The notes below the pieces were generated by a model. It was not told where the DNA came from, searched no databases, and was given only the letters and a program-made list of their open reading frames with translations. A stretch of DNA of 18,780 nucleotides from a virus. The position numbers and the translations under genes are program-made. Positions 1-18,780 of the stretch are shown here, piece by piece; position 1 is the stretch's first letter, and every line of letters begins with the position of its first letter. The stretch covers positions 1 through 18,780 of IMG/VR virus record IMGVR_UViG_3300045988_003822; one strand, given 5' to 3'.

Positions 1-239
1 AAAAAGGAGGGGAGGGGCCCCAGCAGCTAGCCTTTTTCCATAACTGCTCTATCCTGTGTTCTGCATTGCTGTTGCTTTGTGTTTTTTTGTATTGCCGTTG
101 CTCTCTGTGTTTTTCGTTTCCGCTCTGTGTGTGTTTATTTCTTTGCCTTGTTTTGTCTTCGTTTTTTTTGTGTGTTTTGGGTGTGTTGTTTTTTGTGGTG
201 TGGTATGATGTAGTTATCAGCCGGTAGGGAGGTAAATAA
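1..239. repeat. Left inverted terminal repeat (ITR-L) of a linear protein-primed genome
   Basis: 1-223 is the exact reverse complement of 18558-18780. Identity continues to 239/18542 with one mismatch (g224 pairs with t18557). It starts 5'-AAAAAGGAGGGGAGGGG (17-nt polypurine). Positions 60-203 are strongly G/T-rich on the top strand, with T-tracts and degenerate ~26-bp repeats (65-90 vs 91-116). Confidence 0.95.
201..209 (+). promoter_or_regulatory. Putative extended -10 promoter element (TGgTATGAT) inside ITR-L, reading inward
   Basis: tggtatgat at 201-209 fits TGnTATAAT (and TAnnnT). It lies 32 nt upstream of ATG 241, followed by SD GGGAGG at 227-232. I found no good -35 hexamer. This is motif matching only. 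Confidence 0.35.
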
Positions 240-3240: not shown

Positions 3241-4476
3241 TCAGAAGTTCGGCGGCGCACTCTTTCCATCCCATACGTTCAGCAAGCTATAGGCGGTCTG
3301 ATATCGCGTGCCATACGGGCCGAACGGTGATGTGGCCAGAATGTTGTCACGCAATCCCGCAAGCGTGGTTGCGACTGGCACATTCAGCGCGCCTGCGGGA
3401 GATTGATGGTATGCGCAGACCCATAGGATTTGCATTTTCGCGTCGTCGTATTTTTGCGGATATCCTTCGTAGTCCTTGGCGAACTGGGCGCGTTGCCCCG
3501 GATGGGATTGAGCGCGTTGCGCCCACGTCTGGAACGCCGCAACCTCGCTGCCGGTCATCGCCCTATCGAACGTGCCGCCTGAGTCCATAAGCGCGGCAAT
3601 GTCCGGGGCGGCGGCGGCGAACGTCCGATATCCATCGGCGTCCGCCGTTTTCATCGAATTCAATACTTGCAGACGGCGTCCGAAACTCCATTGCGCGATA
3701 CCGATACCTTGACGGTTAGACTCTACCGCATCCCATTGCAATGATGATTCAACCGTGCCCACCACATAAAGCGCATAACTTGACTCACCATCGCCCACGC
3801 TGGGAGATGATTGGCCTCCGTCCCCATCTGGCGCACCCGTGCCGGACGCGCCGCGATATATCCAATTCTGCGCGGTCGTCTTGACGAACAACGCCGACTT
3901 GCCGCCATTGCCAGAACCGTAATGATATATCAAATTATCGCCCTGTTGTTGTATCCATGAGGACGAACCGCCCGGCACGTCCGAACCTTGGTTGTCCCCG
4001 CCTGTGGGATTCCCTCCGTTCGGATTATTCGGAGTCGTACCGCCCGGCTGTAGGACCTTGGGATGCAGGTAGCCGAGCAGCTGCGAACCTTTGAGGAGCG
4101 GTAAGGTTTGATGGACTGCGGGAGTGGGGTTTTGCGTCAGGACGTCGATGTTATCACCCGTGACGCCATTCCATACGATTGCGACATGGGAGCCTGTATA
4201 AATCTGGCTACCATACGTCCAAAACACCACGTCACCCTTAACCGGCGTATAATTGGCGTCCATTTTCTCATACACGTTGCTGAGTGCGGCAGTATAGGGG
4301 AAGCGCGTATAGCATCCTTCGGCATAGCCGGTGGGTGTGATGCAGTCCTGTACGCTCAGACCATACATGTCCATGCTGTACTTGGCCCACAGGTCCCAAC
4401 ATTGCGCACCGTATGCGCCATCCATATCCCAGTACCGGTTTTCGGTCTGCGTAAACCATTCATCAAGTGTCGGCAT
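3241..4476 (-). CDS. Virion-associated peptidoglycan hydrolase (tail lysin): N-terminal CHAP, Gly-rich linker, C-terminal lysozyme-like domain
   Basis: CHAP signature: AYGAQCWDL (Cys) and GSHVAIVW (His). A G/N/P/S-rich linker follows. The C-terminal ...VESS...GIGIAQWSFGRR... resembles the phage tail lysozyme family. The position matches phi29 gp13. I prefer ATG 4476, because the track start 4494 is a GTG inside the upstream hairpin. Confidence 0.75.
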   Translation of the reverse strand: MPTLDEWFTQTENRYWDMDGAYGAQCWDLWAKYSMDMYGLSVQDCITPTGYAEGCYTRFPYTAALSNVYEKMDANYTPVKGDVVFWTYGSQIYTGSHVAIVWNGVTGDNIDVLTQNPTPAVHQTLPLLKGSQLLGYLHPKVLQPGGTTPNNPNGGNPTGGDNQGSDVPGGSSSWIQQQGDNLIYHYGSGNGGKSALFVKTTAQNWIYRGASGTGAPDGDGGQSSPSVGDGESSYALYVVGTVESSLQWDAVESNRQGIGIAQWSFGRRLQVLNSMKTADADGYRTFAAAAPDIAALMDSGGTFDRAMTGSEVAAFQTWAQRAQSHPGQRAQFAKDYEGYPQKYDDAKMQILWVCAYHQSPAGALNVPVATTLAGLRDNILATSPFGPYGTRYQTAYSLLNVWDGKSAPPNF

Positions 4477-4485
4477 GATACCAGT

Positions 4486-4513
4486 ATACCCCACTGCACA
4501 GGCAGTGGGGTAT
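4486..4513 (-). terminator. Strong intergenic hairpin (attenuator or RNA-stability element) between the fibre gene and the tail lysin gene
   Basis: A 12-bp stem, ataccccactgc / gcagtggggtat, with a 4-nt loop. There is no U-tract on the - strand. It ends 9 nt before ATG 4476. Confidence 0.5.
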
Positions 4514-13017: not shown

Positions 13018-13359
13018 TTAGTCTTCGTACAGGTCATCGAACGTGCTGTAGGTGCCGTTATAGTCGTCATCGGTCATTTCAGCCGATTCCGGCGTCGCAA
13101 CGTCGTCGGGGCCATCGTTCAGCACGTGGTCTGCTGCCGCATCACGCATCGCTTCGACGGTTTTGGACAGCTCCGCCACGGTTGCCTCCAATGCGCTCAG
13201 CCGGTCGGCCATGTCGGCGTTTTTGTCGTCGCCCGCGTCTTCAGGCTCGCCATCATCCTGCGTTTCAGGTTCCGGGTTCGGCGTATTGTCGTCGGCGCTC
13301 CCGTCCGGTTCAGTGTCGGGCGTGGTGTCCAGCTTGTCATCATTTTCGGTGTCGTCCAT
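13018..13359 (-). CDS. Scaffolding protein (very acidic, central helix)
   Basis: 113 aa and extremely D/E-rich, with a helical core (ADRLSALEATVAELSKTVEAMRDAAA). It lies directly upstream of the capsid gene, like phi29 gp7. I prefer ATG 13359, 5 nt after GAGG. The track start 13365 is a GTG. Confidence 0.7.
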   Translation of the reverse strand: MDDTENDDKLDTTPDTEPDGSADDNTPNPEPETQDDGEPEDAGDDKNADMADRLSALEATVAELSKTVEAMRDAAADHVLNDGPDDVATPESAEMTDDDYNGTYSTFDDLYED

Positions 13360-13379
13360 AATCACCTCTTAAAGTAGAT

Positions 13380-13407
13380 GGCACGGCAGCAATCACGCTG
13401 CCGTGCC
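13380..13407 (-). terminator. Hairpin at the early/late boundary (end of the replication operon and/or 5' element of the late mRNA)
   Basis: An 11-bp GC-rich stem, ggcacggcagc / gctgccgtgcc, with a 6-nt loop. On the - strand it is followed by AUCUACUUUA, then SD and ATG 13359. Confidence 0.5.
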
Positions 13408-13545
13408 GGATTGCTAGGCTGTGCGGGTTCCCTCGCCGTCAATGGGCGTTGGCTACGCACGTCTACATCCGACCGAATCGCCTTACCGATTGCCTACCGG
13501 TCGGGCCATTGAATCGGCTTGGGACGCACACCCCGCTACCGGCTA
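13408..13545 (-). ncRNA. Candidate structured non-coding RNA (function unknown; a pRNA-like or regulatory leader is speculative)
   Basis: This ~140 nt lies downstream of the polymerase stop, has no plausible ORF on either strand, and contains several nested inverted repeats. One example is CCGACCG...AAUCG-GUAAGG-CGAUU-CGGUCGG at 13469-13504. There is no covariation or expression evidence. Confidence 0.2.
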
Positions 13546-15015
13546 TTATAGCACAAAAAAACAGCCGTCATCGTTGACATGGCGTGACCTCGGCAGGAAG
13601 TCGTCGTAGGGGATAGGGGCTGCTCGATGCACGCCACTCAACCGCATCACCGTGCCGCCGTCTTCCTCTACGCCGCAATATTTGCGATTACCGAGAATGC
13701 GAAGTTTTTTATAGGTGTGGTCGTTTTTCCACGCGCCCAGCTTCTTGTCGTCCGTTTCGATGCTTGCGGGCGCTTCCAGTCCTTCCAATATCATGCCGTC
13801 CGTATCGGCGTAGAGCACACGGTCGGCGTTCGCATTCATCGCGCGGGATAATATTTGCCGACCGTAGGCATTGACATAGGCGGCGGTCGGCAACCATGCG
13901 AGTGAGTTGGTTGACTCAGGTTTATCCACAGTAAAATCCACACCCCCTTCGCCAGAGGGTTTCGGGTGCAGCATGGGTCGGTAAAGCGAGGCTCCAAACT
14001 TTCCGACCAGTGAGTTTAATAATAGTTTCGCCATTTGCCGACGCTCGCCGGTTGCGGTTTGCTTCACGTGAAACCACTTATCAACGTAATCGTAATAAAG
14101 TCCATGCGATTTCCGGAATTTCCAACCACCTACATAATCCCACACATGGACGTCATAGTTTTCCACAAGCGTCCGCCAGTCCACATCAGTCACCGGCATG
14201 GTAACGACACCCAGCGTGCTATCCATACGTTCGCCCTCATATCCCCATACTGGCAGGATATTGGTGAGCGTCGCCGTTTTTCCCGGTTTTAGTCGCGCGT
14301 CGAACGCGATAATGTCGATGTGCAGCGGATAGTCTGCGTCATAATGATATTCTCCCCCATACCATAGGGGGGAGCCTATAGGCATGGCAAAGTCTCGCAT
14401 GATGCTCGGATAAAGACTATTCACGTCCCAGCTGTTGCAATCCCGATATTCGCCCGGCCTGCTGTGCACTATCGCTCCATAGTATGCGGGGCGCATTCGG
14501 TGATAATCATCCTTGGACAATGGAGGAAAGTGACGTTTGAATCCGGCGTAATCTCCGCCGATATAGTCGGACATCGCCATTGACGCTATTGTAGTACCCT
14601 TAAGGTTCAGGGCGTCGCATTCCTGCGCGATGTTCCACGTGGTTTCCAAGTCATCCGCACCACCAAACGTTTCACGTGAGACATTCAGCCCGTCATCTCG
14701 TGTGATATTGCGCACGTCCAAAAAATCCACGGTGATACCGCCCATACGCACCCGGAAACTGTAGAAATGACCACGAATGTTGAACGTGCCCCAGACTCCA
14801 TCCTTAGCCGGATTCGATTGCAAGGGGAGACGTCTCAATAACTCAGCCGCTATAGGTTTGATGTCCTGCCATCCGTGAGCGCACCATACGCGCGTATGGT
14901 GGTCAAGCATGGTTAGCCGAACGACGGCATTCGCCGTCAATGGCGCTATGCCGTCATCCGTCAATAGTGTTGCGCCGTCTGTTGCCGCCGTTCGACGCTC
15001 TCGCATAATTCCCAT
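13546..15015 (-). CDS. Protein-primed family-B DNA polymerase (phi29 gp2-like) with a shortened, motif-degenerate exonuclease domain
   Basis: Motif A is WDVNSLYPSIM, motif B is KLLLNSLVGKFG, motif C is LYADTDGMI, plus YYGA (YxGG/A). TPR1-region match: DADYPLHIDII vs phi29 DEDYPLHIQHI. Also LGAWKND vs LGYWAHE and RKY vs KTY. It is 489 aa against 575 aa for phi29. An alternative ATG at 15006 has better SD spacing. Confidence 0.92.
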   Translation of the reverse strand: MGIMRERRTAATDGATLLTDDGIAPLTANAVVRLTMLDHHTRVWCAHGWQDIKPIAAELLRRLPLQSNPAKDGVWGTFNIRGHFYSFRVRMGGITVDFLDVRNITRDDGLNVSRETFGGADDLETTWNIAQECDALNLKGTTIASMAMSDYIGGDYAGFKRHFPPLSKDDYHRMRPAYYGAIVHSRPGEYRDCNSWDVNSLYPSIMRDFAMPIGSPLWYGGEYHYDADYPLHIDIIAFDARLKPGKTATLTNILPVWGYEGERMDSTLGVVTMPVTDVDWRTLVENYDVHVWDYVGGWKFRKSHGLYYDYVDKWFHVKQTATGERRQMAKLLLNSLVGKFGASLYRPMLHPKPSGEGGVDFTVDKPESTNSLAWLPTAAYVNAYGRQILSRAMNANADRVLYADTDGMILEGLEAPASIETDDKKLGAWKNDHTYKKLRILGNRKYCGVEEDGGTVMRLSGVHRAAPIPYDDFLPRSRHVNDDGCFFVL

Positions 15016-15021
15016 CCTTTT

Positions 15022-15969
15022 TTAGTGTCTTGCTGCGCTGGTCATCCATTCATCAAGTCGTGTCTCTACGTCTCCTGCGTCTGCTTTAGTCTCCCATTTG
15101 TGCGCCTTATCATTATACCATGTTGCCTCACGCACGACGACGCTGAAATTCGTGTTGTTTATCAGCCATCGTTTTTGTCGGTTTGACAAAGAGGCGAATT
15201 TTTGAGCTACGCTAGAGTTGAACGCTTCGAGCTGTTGCGCGGCCTTGTCAAAATCCGAAACACCTTCGTTTTCAGAAATCCGCCTAGTTCCCGCACGCAA
15301 CGGCGCACGTCCTACAAGTCCGGCGTATTGAAGCACCTCCCGTTCAAGCCTCCTACGGCTTCCCTCTCGAATCATCGCACGCGCATGGCTTATTCCACGC
15401 TCTGTACCGAACACGTTCGCACGGCTTCGCATGAGTTCGTCACGTGCTGACCCGCCGACCGTATGAGTGCCCAGCACATCGAACGGAGATTCACCTGCAC
15501 GTTCCATTTCACGCATTTCACCTACGGTATAACTAGCCATACTCAGCGCCTCGAATTGTTGAGCACGCTTGATTTTCTGCCGTGCCTCGACTCGGCGGCG
15601 CTGCTGCTGCCGCAATGTTTTCCGACGTTTCGACGGGGCGGCGGCGATTTCCGCGTCGCTTATTAGAGGACGTGACGCCATTTCACGGTCAAGTTTCGTG
15701 ACATGGACGTCGGGAACAACCTGATACGGCTCATTGTCCCGCGCCCTTAAGGCTTGCTGTTGTTCTCCAAACTCCTGCCCGATACGTCGCGCGACCTGTT
15801 CAAGCTGTTGGACACTGAGGTTCCCTAAAAACGTTTCGGTAATTTGCTTGGGGAGGCGTCCGGTACTGTAATCCCTAACTGCTCTCTCCCGGCGCACCTG
15901 TGCCGACCTGATTGCGGCGTTGCGTTTCAGATTGTTGGCGCGTCGGCTATTTTTTTTGCGTTTTGCCAC
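15022..15969 (-). CDS. Terminal protein candidate (priming protein)
   Basis: It lies immediately upstream of the protein-primed polymerase, like phi29 gene 3. It has a highly basic N-terminus (VAKRKKNSRRANNLKRN...), is helical and charged, and is 315 aa. I prefer GTG 15969, 6 nt after AGGAG. ATG 16047 would translate through a terminator hairpin and lacks an SD. There is no direct sequence match; the call is positional. Confidence 0.55.
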   Translation of the reverse strand: MAKRKKNSRRANNLKRNAAIRSAQVRRERAVRDYSTGRLPKQITETFLGNLSVQQLEQVARRIGQEFGEQQQALRARDNEPYQVVPDVHVTKLDREMASRPLISDAEIAAAPSKRRKTLRQQQRRRVEARQKIKRAQQFEALSMASYTVGEMREMERAGESPFDVLGTHTVGGSARDELMRSRANVFGTERGISHARAMIREGSRRRLEREVLQYAGLVGRAPLRAGTRRISENEGVSDFDKAAQQLEAFNSSVAQKFASLSNRQKRWLINNTNFSVVVREATWYNDKAHKWETKADAGDVETRLDEWMTSAARH

Positions 15970-15993
15970 ATCCCTCTCCTTGCGAGTATAAAA

Positions 15994-16031
15994 CACCCCT
16001 CGCCGCAAAAGATGGGAAACGGCGAGGGGTG
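15994..16031 (-). terminator. Intrinsic terminator/attenuator between the SSB gene and the terminal-protein gene
   Basis: On the - strand: a 12-bp GC-rich stem (cacccctcgccg / cggcgaggggtg), a 14-nt loop, then GUUUUAU, followed by the SD and GTG of the next gene. Confidence 0.65.
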
Positions 16032-16093
16032 AGTTTGGCGGCAACATCCCTATAGGGACATTGTCATGATATCATACGGTGCGGACAATCGTA

Positions 16094-16531
16094 TTACTTG
16101 CGCTTGTTTTCCGACACCAGTTCGAGGTCGAAGAACTTATAGCCACGGCGACTTTTCTTTTCTACCACCTTGAGAACAAGTGGCTGATTCCACGTGTCCG
16201 GCGTGCCGAAAATGGCGAACAGATTACCGAATGCGTGCGCAAGCGTGGGGGAGGCTGCGGCAAAATCGCCTTCCTCCGCGTGAATGACGACACGAGTGGA
16301 CGGATTGGTTTCACCAGTCTCCTGATTGGCAACTTCGATGGTCTGCGCCAGCACGTTGGTGACATGCAGTAGCTCATTGAGGTGGTCATCTACCTTATCG
16401 GCGGTTTGCATGGCACTGTACAGCGCCATCTTGCCGTCCATAGAAGAAGTATCGAAAAAGTGGGATACGGCGTTAGTGCCGTTCGCAGAAAAGTTGTTGC
16501 CGTTCATTACGGTCAGTTCGTTGTCAGCCAT
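16094..16531 (-). CDS. Phage single-stranded DNA-binding protein (lactococcal-phage SSB-like family)
   Basis: The pattern ...ALYSAMQTADKVDDHLNELLHVTNVL...ETGE...RVVIHAEEGDFAAAS...FGNLFAIFGTPDTWNQPLVLKVVEKKSRRGYKFFDLELV matches, from memory, the small phage SSB family of Gram-positive phages. It sits where phi29 gene 5 sits. The SD is AGGAAAGG. Confidence 0.5.
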   Translation of the reverse strand: MADNELTVMNGNNFSANGTNAVSHFFDTSSMDGKMALYSAMQTADKVDDHLNELLHVTNVLAQTIEVANQETGETNPSTRVVIHAEEGDFAAASPTLAHAFGNLFAIFGTPDTWNQPLVLKVVEKKSRRGYKFFDLELVSENKRK

Positions 16532-18296: not shown

Positions 18297-18542
18297 TCAC
18301 TTGTTAGTCAAGGCGTCAATTACCGCTTCAGCGATAGTGTCACCAGTTCCCAAAACAACAACAGGACGACAATATCTAACACAAACGGCATAATACACCT
18401 CAACCGCGTCCACCTCACGCCCATCTTCTGTAGTACAATAGTATGGAATCCCAACCCTTTTGTCGTAAGCGCGTGCCATCAATTCCCGCACCTCCTCGAC
18501 ACTAACGCCCGCTTCTTCTGCAATTTGCTTATAACTATTCAT
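18297..18542 (-). CDS. First right-end early protein (81 aa); N-terminus weakly HTH-like
   Basis: ATG 18542 uses the SD supplied by ITR-R. The N-terminal YKQIAEEAGVSVEEVRELMARA looks like a helix-turn-helix, but this is only a pattern impression. Confidence 0.6.
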   Translation of the reverse strand: MNSYKQIAEEAGVSVEEVRELMARAYDKRVGIPYYCTTEDGREVDAVEVYYAVCVRYCRPVVVLGTGDTIAEAVIDALTNK

Positions 18543-18780
18543 TATTTACCTCCCTATCGGCTGATAACTACATCATACCACACCACAAAAAACAACACAC
18601 CCAAAACACACAAAAAAAACGAAGACAAAACAAGGCAAAGAAATAAACACACACAGAGCGGAAACGAAAAACACAGAGAGCAACGGCAATACAAAAAAAC
18701 ACAAAGCAACAGCAATGCAGAACACAGGATAGAGCAGTTATGGAAAAAGGCTAGCTGCTGGGGCCCCTCCCCTCCTTTTT
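18542..18780. repeat. Right inverted terminal repeat (ITR-R)
   Basis: Reverse complement of 1-239, as described for ITR-L. The window ends ...CCCCTCCCCTCCTTTTT-3'. Confidence 0.95.
18572..18580 (-). promoter_or_regulatory. Mirror copy of the ITR extended -10 element, reading inward into the right early operon
   Basis: Identical sequence by ITR symmetry. It is followed by the same GGGAGG SD and then ATG 18542 of the first - strand gene. Confidence 0.35.

Follow-up and report, generated by a model that had tools for sequence, protein, structure and literature searches.

A protein-primed DNA polymerase of a phi29-like phage with a shortened and probably inactive proofreading domain

Introduction

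Does a phage with a single, protein-primed DNA polymerase correct its own replication errors? To our knowledge, the biochemically characterised phage enzymes of this type (phi29, Nf, GA-1, Cp-1, PRD1, and Bam35) all proofread, and the use of the phi29 polymerase in DNA amplification rests on its fidelity. The locus analysed here raises the question anew. The original prediction, made by eye from the DNA, held that the polymerase encoded at this locus lacks recognisable exonuclease motifs and that its 3'-5' exonuclease may be inactive or remodelled. Here, we report sequence, profile, and structure-model evidence that supports this prediction.

Results

A complete phage genome with one protein-primed DNA polymerase

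The window, i.e., the entire stretch of DNA analysed, represents a complete 18,780-bp phi29-like phage genome, the host of which is probably Bifidobacterium. The genome ends read AAAAAGG, and evidence for a linear genome consists of perfect 239-bp inverted terminal repeats (Table 1) together with a terminal-protein candidate that is assigned by position only. This 341-aa ORF sits where Av-1 and MG-B1 have their annotated terminal protein, and relatives keep its synteny with the polymerase; it had no family match in Pfam and other profile scans. Scanning all sizeable ORFs of the genome against Pfam and PHROGs identified a phi29-type single-stranded DNA-binding protein and no separate exonuclease or helicase gene. 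An Rfam scan of the whole window gave no family match. We note that, for several small early ORFs, neither Pfam nor PHROGs yields a recognisable family.

Table 1. Coordinates of features in the 18,780-bp window
Feature	Position	Strand	Remarks
Left inverted terminal repeat	1..239	.	239 nt, 100% complementary to 18542-18780
DNA polymerase, 489 aa, protein-primed family B	13546..15015	-	Pfam PF03175, E 1.1e-33
Motif C YADTDG	13795..13812	-	Residues 402-407
Motif B KLLLNSLVGKFG	13993..14028	-	Residues 330-341; Val for phi29 Tyr390 (NSLYG)
Motif A DVNSLYP	14407..14427	-	Residues 197-203
N-terminal domain, residues 1-157	14545..15015	-	Shortened, degenerate 3'-5' exonuclease domain homologue
Shortened ExoIII helix D121-A135	14611..14655	-	D122 = phi29 Asp169 (hhalign, MAFFT, BLASTP)
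ExoII remnant VWCAHGWQD	14863..14889	-	H47 at Asn62 position; D51 = phi29 Asp66
Possible ExoI remnant T12-D13-G14-A15	14971..14982	-	End of strand 1; Asp kept, Glu position = Ala
Terminal-protein candidate, 341-aa ORF	15022..16047	-	Position directly upstream of polymerase only
phi29-type single-stranded DNA-binding protein	16094..16531	-	Pfam PF17427, E 2.4e-13; PHROG 6243
Right inverted terminal repeat	18542..18780	.	Pairs with left repeat

The ORF at 13546-15015 is the sole polymerase of the phage genome and scores 117 bits against PF03175, compared with a cut-off of 25.8. Using phmmer against the phi29 polymerase (1xhx), residues 158-447 aligned with phi29 residues 206-501 (E 4e-45) in a continuous alignment that covers TPR1 and TPR2. 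The AF2 model of the polymerase (pLDDT 91) matched the phi29 polymerase (2pyj_B) in Foldseek with a TMq of 0.82, as opposed to ≤0.46 for RNA/DNA-primed PolBs. As originally stated, the polymerisation motifs DVNSLYP, KLLLNSLVGKFG, and YADTDG are present in the translated ORF; the KxY motif reads R-K-Y, and its Tyr is invariant. The one deviation among the polymerisation motifs is the replacement of the motif B Tyr by Val. This Tyr is absent in 30/30 sequences inspected from the family of short polymerases to which this enzyme belongs but kept in all 18 canonical relatives inspected. The thumb is also trimmed in the short family.

The N-terminal domain is a trimmed homologue of the phi29 exonuclease domain

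Aligning the N-terminal domain with canonical exonuclease domains using hhalign gave a probability of 90-91.5% and an E value of about 1e-6. The AF2 model of the domain alone had a pLDDT of 88, and in the AF2 models the order of secondary-structure elements is that of the phi29 exonuclease domain. A Foldseek search of the PDB with the model of the domain alone returned no significant match to any solved exonuclease, and the DnaQ fold can therefore not be assigned to the domain on that test; the evidence that the fold is retained comes from superposing the whole protein, from aligning profiles, and from the sequence in which the secondary-structure elements follow one another. In the whole-protein superposition, a TMq of 0.82 corresponds to 401 residue-equivalents, which is more than the polymerase part could supply with its 332 residues, and the N-terminal domain must therefore contribute. 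Searches with this domain recovered little: tblastn with the domain alone gave no match among phage records at E ≤ 1, and a word-indexed homologue search with its profile returned 10 fragments only.

Compared with canonical polymerases, the domain is trimmed by ~50 residues, including a shortened first hairpin. This agrees with the predicted shortening, as motif A begins at residue 197 and at 249 in phi29, a difference of 52 aa. The hhalign alignment places the deletions inside the domain rather than at its N-terminus.

All three exonuclease motifs are incomplete

To describe the motifs, we used the translated ORF, alignments made with MAFFT, hhalign, and BLASTP, and the clade of this polymerase, which comprises 89 sequences down to 46% identity. 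For ExoI, we confirmed that DxE is absent from residues 1-57. D13 at the end of strand 1 is equated with phi29 D12 by topology only, because global hhalign has zero confidence over the first 26 residues. Throughout the clade, D13 and G14 do not vary, and position 15, where the catalytic Glu would be expected, varies between A, V, T, S, and R.

For ExoII, all three methods placed RVWCAHGWQD on the ExoII strand and the start of the following helix (DLYFHNLKFD in phi29), with a probability of 90% and an E value of 1.6e-6 in hhalign and with NVWFHNLKFD of the Bacillus phage MG-B1 polymerase as the BLASTP partner. Based on this placement, D51 corresponds to phi29 D66, and ExoII survives as a recognisable H-x3-D remnant, with the same spacing as the canonical N-x3-D. 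None of C45, H47, G48, W49, and D51 varies within the clade. The original reading of LDHHTRVW at 14884-14907 was correct, but the match to RVWAYG of phi29 was not, as RVWCAHGWQD belongs to the ExoII strand.

For ExoIII, a helix spanning residues 122-135 is present in the AF2 models of both the full protein and the domain alone, and D122 is retained in 87 of the 89 clade sequences. Between A120 and D121, 27 aa corresponding to phi29 residues 141-167 are gone, including Lys143 and Tyr165; the three methods concur on this deletion and on the residue mapping. In the hhalign and BLASTP alignments, the catalytic Tyr that precedes the ExoIII Asp by four residues lies within the deletion. DLE (residues 122-124) is indeed the only DxE, as had been observed; it is not a misplaced ExoI, since D122 aligns with the ExoIII Asp, phi29 D169. 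Likewise, YIGGD (residues 151-155) is the only YxxxD in the N-terminal part, and neither Nx2-3[F/Y]D nor Yx3D occurs at the expected places. The by-eye alignment with phi29 was wrong in three places, and the main observation, that the canonical motifs are missing, was borne out. Acidic residues do not occupy all of the aligned ExoI-III positions.

In total, the missing catalytic parts are the ExoI Glu, the ExoIII Tyr165, Lys143, and the ExoII Asn/Phe, and ExoI, ExoII, and ExoIII are all incomplete. The four invariant carboxylates of a DEDD exonuclease are not all found: a variable Ala occupies the Glu position, and the match of D13 to the ExoI Asp is uncertain. With D13 and D51 invariant and D122 nearly so, the clade retains carboxylates at three of the four positions, and its domain could therefore have some activity left or a remodelled one.

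The motifs are absent throughout a family that includes cultured phages

None of 111 members of the short family has all three Exo motifs, compared with 23/23 canonical relatives; judged from these sequences, this absence is not due to chance. As originally suspected, this is unusual among replicative protein-primed polymerases. The full DEDDy catalytic set is kept in all other polymerases of phi29-like phages that we examined, those of actinobacterial phages included. In the wider short family, no catalytic Exo position is conserved, and strand 1 is wholly absent in the polymerases of BadAztec1, P0139, and P0144. The nearest annotated relatives, at 34-37% identity, are the polymerases of BP1, BD811P1-3, and BadAztec/BadAargau (Badaztecvirus), which are members of the same short family (469-483 aa) with the same synteny and no Exo motifs, and which additionally lack equivalents of H47, D51, and D122. 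A short polymerase is the sole polymerase of the cultured, viable Bifidobacterium phages BP1, BD811P1, and BadAztec1. Database records name the Badaztecvirus, BP1, and BD811P1-3 enzymes plainly "DNA polymerase," and we found no comment on missing proofreading motifs in Bifidobacterium-phage polymerases in the searchable literature.

The dN/dS ratio between this polymerase and that of P0042 is 0.08 for the N-terminal domain and 0.09 for the polymerase domain; purifying selection on the N-terminal domain is as strong as on the polymerase domain. Within the clade, invariance is limited to 26 of the 157 N-terminal positions. Three residues are conserved in the short and canonical families alike, i.e., Y85 (phi29 Y101), D100 (phi29 D121), and T142 (phi29 T189), and these have been linked to contacts with DNA, to processivity, and to the connection of the exonuclease domain with the polymerase domain (PMC6351526).

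Discussion

We suggest that the N-terminal domain is probably a catalytically dead or crippled pseudo-exonuclease that has been retained as a scaffold. The domain would descend from the DEDDy 3'-5' proofreading exonuclease of phi29-type polymerases by partial loss of the catalytic set and trimming, and proofreading by the polymerase would most likely be nil or very slight. Because several proofreading residues are lost, DNA copying by the phage and its relatives probably proceeds without correction of errors by the polymerase. The domain has probably persisted because the replicase still requires it as a structural component that may pack on the polymerase domain, form the template tunnel with TPR2, and support processivity and strand displacement.

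It is highly improbable that the short N-terminus is an artefact, whether of a wrongly assigned start, a frameshift, faulty assembly, or coding sequence overlooked upstream. An ORF does lie upstream in the same frame, here and in the relatives L005-L007, with 6 nt separating its stop from the first ATG of the polymerase, but L005 has two in-frame stops between the ORFs, and no in-frame extension restores a canonical N-terminus. In each case, stop codons part the two ORFs and the polymerase starts at a separate ATG behind a Shine-Dalgarno sequence, and we therefore also rejected a fusion of the terminal protein to the polymerase. Here, the Shine-Dalgarno sequence AAGGA precedes the second ATG, and the true start is likely the ATG at 15006 (M4), giving a protein of 486 aa as in relatives. 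Moreover, AF2 modelled the unextended ORF confidently beginning with residue 4, the deletions are internal to the domain, and the ~486-aa architecture repeats in >100 independent protein clusters/contigs and in three cultured phage lineages, which refutes an assembly or annotation artefact. A host exonuclease or an unrecognised phage protein could also proofread in trans and so maintain fidelity. Nothing speaks positively for this possibility beyond the small ORFs without a recognisable family; no ORF matches an exonuclease family in Pfam or PHROGs, we know of no precedent among phi29-type replicases, and we consider it very unlikely.

The invariant residues of the clade deserve closer attention, as D13, H47, D51, and D122 together with C45-x-H-G-W-x-D might form a remodelled, active exonuclease that binds metal and removes mismatched 3' ends, with His47 or water standing in for the missing Glu or Tyr. 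The invariance of these residues down to 46% identity, in a domain with so few invariant positions, and the canonical spacing of H-x3-D favour such an enzyme. We nevertheless regard it as unlikely given that the ExoI Glu position varies freely, the 27-aa deletion takes away both Tyr165 and Lys143, and sister clades of the short family, cultured phages among them, persist without H47, D51, and D122. Moreover, Bernad in 1989 and Esteban in 1994 are said to have found that any single ExoI-III catalytic substitution in the phi29 polymerase cripples its exonuclease. Similarly doubtful is the broader proposal that the old pocket was rebuilt in this clade into a functional metal or single-stranded DNA site without the Glu and Tyr, serving non-DEDD proofreading or strand displacement/terminal-protein handling, which would give a phi29-type replicase a catalytic or mechanical solution not seen before. 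It is possible that the kept Asp and His residues have a non-nucleolytic role in a dead exonuclease, i.e., in single-stranded DNA binding, strand displacement, or interaction with the terminal protein. Consistent with this, strand displacement is reportedly defective in the phi29 D12A/D66A mutant and depends in part on residues of the exonuclease domain (PMC6351526), no helicase was found in the genome by Pfam and PHROGs, and the domain is under strong purifying selection; on the other hand, other clades of the short family manage without these residues. We note that such a role would refine, and not contradict, the pseudo-exonuclease explanation for this clade.

The polymerase shares the protein-primed family B fold with TPR1, TPR2, palm, fingers, and thumb with the enzymes of phi29 (gp2; 1XHX, 2PYJ), Nf, GA-1, Cp-1, Av-1, and MG-B1, and the phage shares with phi29-like phages the gene neighbourhood of SSB, terminal-protein position, and polymerase as well as a probably linear genome bounded by inverted terminal repeats. 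Unlike in those polymerases, ExoI DxE, ExoII Nx3FD, and ExoIII Yx3D are incomplete, the exonuclease domain has the 27-aa deletion and the shortened first hairpin, the region after KxY plus the thumb is ~32 aa shorter, and Tyr390 is replaced by Val. In the eukaryotic family B enzymes Pol alpha and Pol zeta, an exonuclease-like fold without catalytic carboxylates is retained as structure. These are RNA/DNA-primed cellular enzymes of another PolB branch, and the likeness is one of principle only; the exonuclease domain of PolZeta is inactivated (PMC7544198). The pPolB of the mavirus virophage and the polinton-like pPolB-S1H are protein-primed family B polymerases with an exonuclease domain that is a remnant or lost, for which lower fidelity has been predicted (PMC11161782). 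However, these belong to eukaryotic Preplasmiviricota and are fused to terminal-protein and vOTU domains, and their loss of the exonuclease comes with gain of a helicase (PMC11161782), whereas the phage described here is tailed, has no detected helicase gene, and retains a selected pseudo-exonuclease domain that is predicted to be folded.

If our interpretation is correct, this phage and the whole Bifidobacterium-phage family with the short polymerase would replicate linear genomes of ~18-19 kb by protein priming without intrinsic proofreading, and a common group of gut phages, some of them cultured, would copy double-stranded DNA by base selection only. Replication fidelity would be affected as a consequence, and mutation rates and evolvability in this group should differ from those of other tailed phages. 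With BP1, BD811P1-3, and the BadAztec phages available in culture, this prediction can be tested directly. The family would also represent a natural experiment on which exonuclease-domain residues serve processivity or strand displacement as opposed to editing, and a source of naturally exonuclease-deficient, strand-displacing polymerases for biotechnology.

A short polymerase in a complete linear phage genome

Perfect inverted terminal repeats bound the window and show that its 18,780 bp (GC content, 52.8%) make up an entire linear phage genome. The repeats start with AAAAAGG, and such termini, with five A first, would be compatible with sliding-back initiation. The genome codes for a phi29-type major capsid protein, tail knob, collar/connector proteins, a packaging ATPase (labeled terminase in PHROGs), two lysins, and a phi29-type SSB. 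The lysin-like ORF of 296 aa adjoins a holin; that of 417 aa has an endolysin/amidase match at its N-terminus and may encode a tail-associated cell-wall hydrolase.

Features of the window and their coordinates
Feature	Position	Strand	Remarks
Inverted terminal repeats	1-239 and 18542-18780		239 bp each
Lysin-like ORFs (two, separate)	855-1745 and 3241-4494 (-)
ORF next to structured RNA	13018-13365
Structured RNA	13366-13548	-	between this ORF and the polymerase stop
Polymerase	13546-15015	-	489 aa; sole polymerase in window; Pfam PF03175 match
Polymerase C-terminus	13546-13680	-
Polymerase motif B	13993-14028	-
Terminal-protein-position ORF	15022-16047	-	341 aa; no known family matched

Residues 158-447 of the polymerase match residues 206-501 of the phi29 polymerase (E 4e-45). 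Its closest database relatives are metagenome proteins of ~486 aa, one of them labeled as derived from a Bifidobacterium breve MAG, while the nearest cultured relatives are the Bifidobacterium phages BP1, BD811P1-3, and BadAztec/BadAargau (34-37% identity to the polymerase). Based on this one MAG label and these cultured relatives, the host is probably a Bifidobacterium. The real start of the polymerase is probably the second ATG at 15006, which has an upstream AAGGA Shine-Dalgarno sequence; the first ATG as annotated (15015) overlaps this sequence. Residue numbers given here nevertheless refer to the 489-aa ORF. At the 15006-15024 junction, the terminal-protein-position ORF ends with a TAA in the polymerase frame, 6 nt before this first ATG. 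In the related phage contigs L005-L007, this ORF is likewise in the polymerase frame; read-through fusion of the two ORFs is unlikely because L005 has two in-frame stops between them. An artefact or upstream coding extension as the explanation of the short N-terminus was excluded by the ~486-aa relatives, the in-frame stops, and the Shine-Dalgarno evidence.

The spacer downstream of the polymerase contains a conserved structured RNA (minimum free energy, -85.6 kcal/mol; z = -5.4). Folding it together with the homologous spacers of L005-L007 in RNAalifold gave 53 pairs, 19 with compensatory double changes, which form a branched domain of ~125 nt and, after it, a GC hairpin. The spacer matched no Rfam family, and BP1, BD811P1, and BadAztec1 each have a comparable gap, of 180-230 nt, at the same place. 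The structured RNA may be a packaging (prohead) RNA, at a genomic position unlike that in phi29.

The N-terminal domain has incomplete Exo motifs and a predicted exonuclease-like element order

The original prediction held that the polymerase lacks recognizable ExoI, ExoII, and ExoIII proofreading motifs. The phi29 reference sequence used here was confirmed against PDB 1XHX (the D12A/D66A mutant). As claimed, the polymerase has motifs A, B, and C, the N-terminus is ~50 aa shorter than in phi29 (motif A starts 52 residues earlier), residues 1-57 contain no DxE, and Nx2-3[F/Y]D is absent; YIGGD is the only Yx3D and D122-L-E124 the only DxE. By contrast, RVWCAHG, which the original prediction paired with RVWAYG in strand 2 of phi29, does not correspond to it, since three independent methods place RVWCAHG on the ExoII strand: a MAFFT alignment with canonical relatives, i.e., phi29-like polymerases with all three motifs; profile-profile hhalign between the N-termini of the short family and the exonuclease domains of canonical polymerases, phi29 being the first sequence (probability 90%, E 1.6e-6); and BLASTP against the Bacillus phage MG-B1 polymerase, in which MLDHHTRVWCAHGWQDIKPIAAELLRR pairs with MLDGSKNVWFHNLKFDGSFIAVELLRR.

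Mapped onto phi29, Asp66 and Asp169 are kept as D51 and D122, and ExoII Asn62 (His61 in hhalign) is replaced by H47. A 27-aa deletion between A120 and D121 removes phi29 residues 141-167, including Lys143 and Tyr165. Glu14 is lost, with A15 at this position and A/V/T/S/R across the 89 closer sequences (down to 46% identity) that form the clade of the polymerase. D13 lies in T-D-G-A, where the first predicted strand ends, and may correspond to Asp12; this uncertain equivalence comes from topology only, as a forced global hhalign had zero confidence over that stretch.

The AF2 full-length model, based on a 61-sequence alignment, had a pLDDT of 91 (around 93 within the N-terminal domain). Residues 1-157 were also modeled separately (pLDDT 88), from short-family sequences only to exclude bias from canonical exonuclease domains, and this second model had the same elements: strands 7-12, 16-19, and 22-25, helix 28-34, strand 40-45, helix 49-62, three strands, two short helices, and helix 122-135. 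The phi29 exonuclease domain has this order of elements, but here the first hairpin is shortened and the ExoIII helix truncated. In Foldseek, the full model matched phi29 polymerase chains with a TMq of 0.78-0.82 and RNA/DNA-primed PolBs with at most 0.46. Since 0.82 × 489 = 401 is more than the polymerase part can supply (332 residues), the N-terminal domain must superpose to a considerable degree on the exonuclease domain of phi29. The N-terminal model alone had no significant Foldseek match in the PDB; the predicted domain is by itself too diverged to be recognized as a DnaQ-like exonuclease.

A narrow family lacks the full set of Exo motifs

In a pattern census, all three Exo motifs were found in 23/23 canonical relatives, including those of six cultured phages (Actinomyces Av-1, Curtobacterium Reje, Arthrobacter Anjali, Eggerthella LE1-1, Clostridium CI461P2, and Bacillus MG-B1), and in 0/111 members of the short family. 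Motif absence is, therefore, no sampling accident. The family is narrow: its N-terminal profile matched only 29 clusters among 1.84 billion representative proteins, nearly all of 454-496 aa. Across the whole family, no catalytic position is conserved, and the BadAztec1 polymerase and the family proteins P0139 and P0144 begin downstream of the first strand. BP1, BD811P1, and BadAztec1, which share the gene order SSB, terminal-protein position, polymerase, and capsid, have polymerases of 471, 483, and 469 aa, respectively; thus, viable phages replicate with such an enzyme. The longer polymerases P0148 (526 aa) and P0149 (554 aa), weakly matched by the short N-terminal profile, also have degenerate motifs (ADVDNVT instead of DxET; YMSNMKQKG instead of FHNLKFDG), and exonuclease decay among phi29-like polymerases may for this reason have taken place on more than one occasion, or in steps.

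The N-terminal domain is most likely a pseudo-exonuclease

Single phi29 substitutions at D12, E14, D66, Y165, or D169 reportedly cripple the exonuclease (Bernad in 1989 and Esteban in 1994 are said to have described them), so the joint loss of Glu14, Tyr165, and Lys143 should too. Most likely, the N-terminal domain is a pseudo-exonuclease: it is a selected homologue of the proofreading domain that would be folded, with an incomplete two-metal DEDDy site, and retained as a component of the replicase. Within the clade the picture is milder than in the whole family, in that only 26 N-terminal positions are invariant, D13, C45, H47, G48, W49, and D51 among them, and 87/89 sequences retain D122. 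The main alternative, which we consider unlikely given the missing residues, is that in this clade D13, H47, D51, and D122 form a remodeled but working site; their survival for ssDNA binding or strand displacement would be compatible with a pseudo-exonuclease.

In codon comparisons with three relatives, dN/dS between the polymerase and its relative P0042 was 0.08 for the N-terminal domain and 0.09 for the polymerase domain, and the remaining pairs with unsaturated dS gave N-terminal values of 0.05-0.22. These ratios indicate that the domain still does something. Y85, D100, and T142 are common to the short and canonical families and correspond to phi29 Tyr101 (contacts with the template and processivity, Y101A being distributive), Asp121 (primer-end positioning), and Thr189 (a loop coupling the exonuclease and polymerase domains) (PMC6351526). 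In phi29, the exonuclease domain and TPR2 form the downstream template tunnel, and exonuclease-site mutants have strand-displacement defects (PMC6351526).

Implications for replication fidelity

Inactivated exonuclease domains are familiar from Pol alpha and Pol zeta. Among protein-primed enzymes, mavirus pPolB has only an exonuclease remnant and polinton-like-virus pPolB-S1H lacks the domain, and both gained a helicase (PMC11161782). Unlike these, the polymerase studied here belongs to a tailed phage and keeps a full-sized, selected, probable pseudo-domain; Pfam and PHROGs scans detected no exonuclease or helicase among the sizeable window ORFs. Short-family proteins are already in databases, annotated just as "DNA polymerase," and a 2024 review of phi29-like phages handles their polymerases as ordinary homologues. 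In the literature searched, we found no paper pointing out that proofreading motifs are absent from phi29-like or Bifidobacterium phages.

Elsewhere in the polymerase, two further changes run through the short family. The stretch that follows KxY and includes the thumb lacks ~32 residues relative to phi29, with a truncated terminal beta-hairpin. In motif B, Tyr390 of phi29 NSLYG, a nucleotide-selection residue, is Val; this position is non-aromatic (Val/Ile/Thr/Cys/Ala) in 30/30 short sequences inspected and Tyr in 18/18 canonical ones. The loss of this Tyr is a second fidelity-related change that co-occurs with exonuclease decay. For the phage, the consequence of a pseudo-exonuclease would be replication of lower fidelity.
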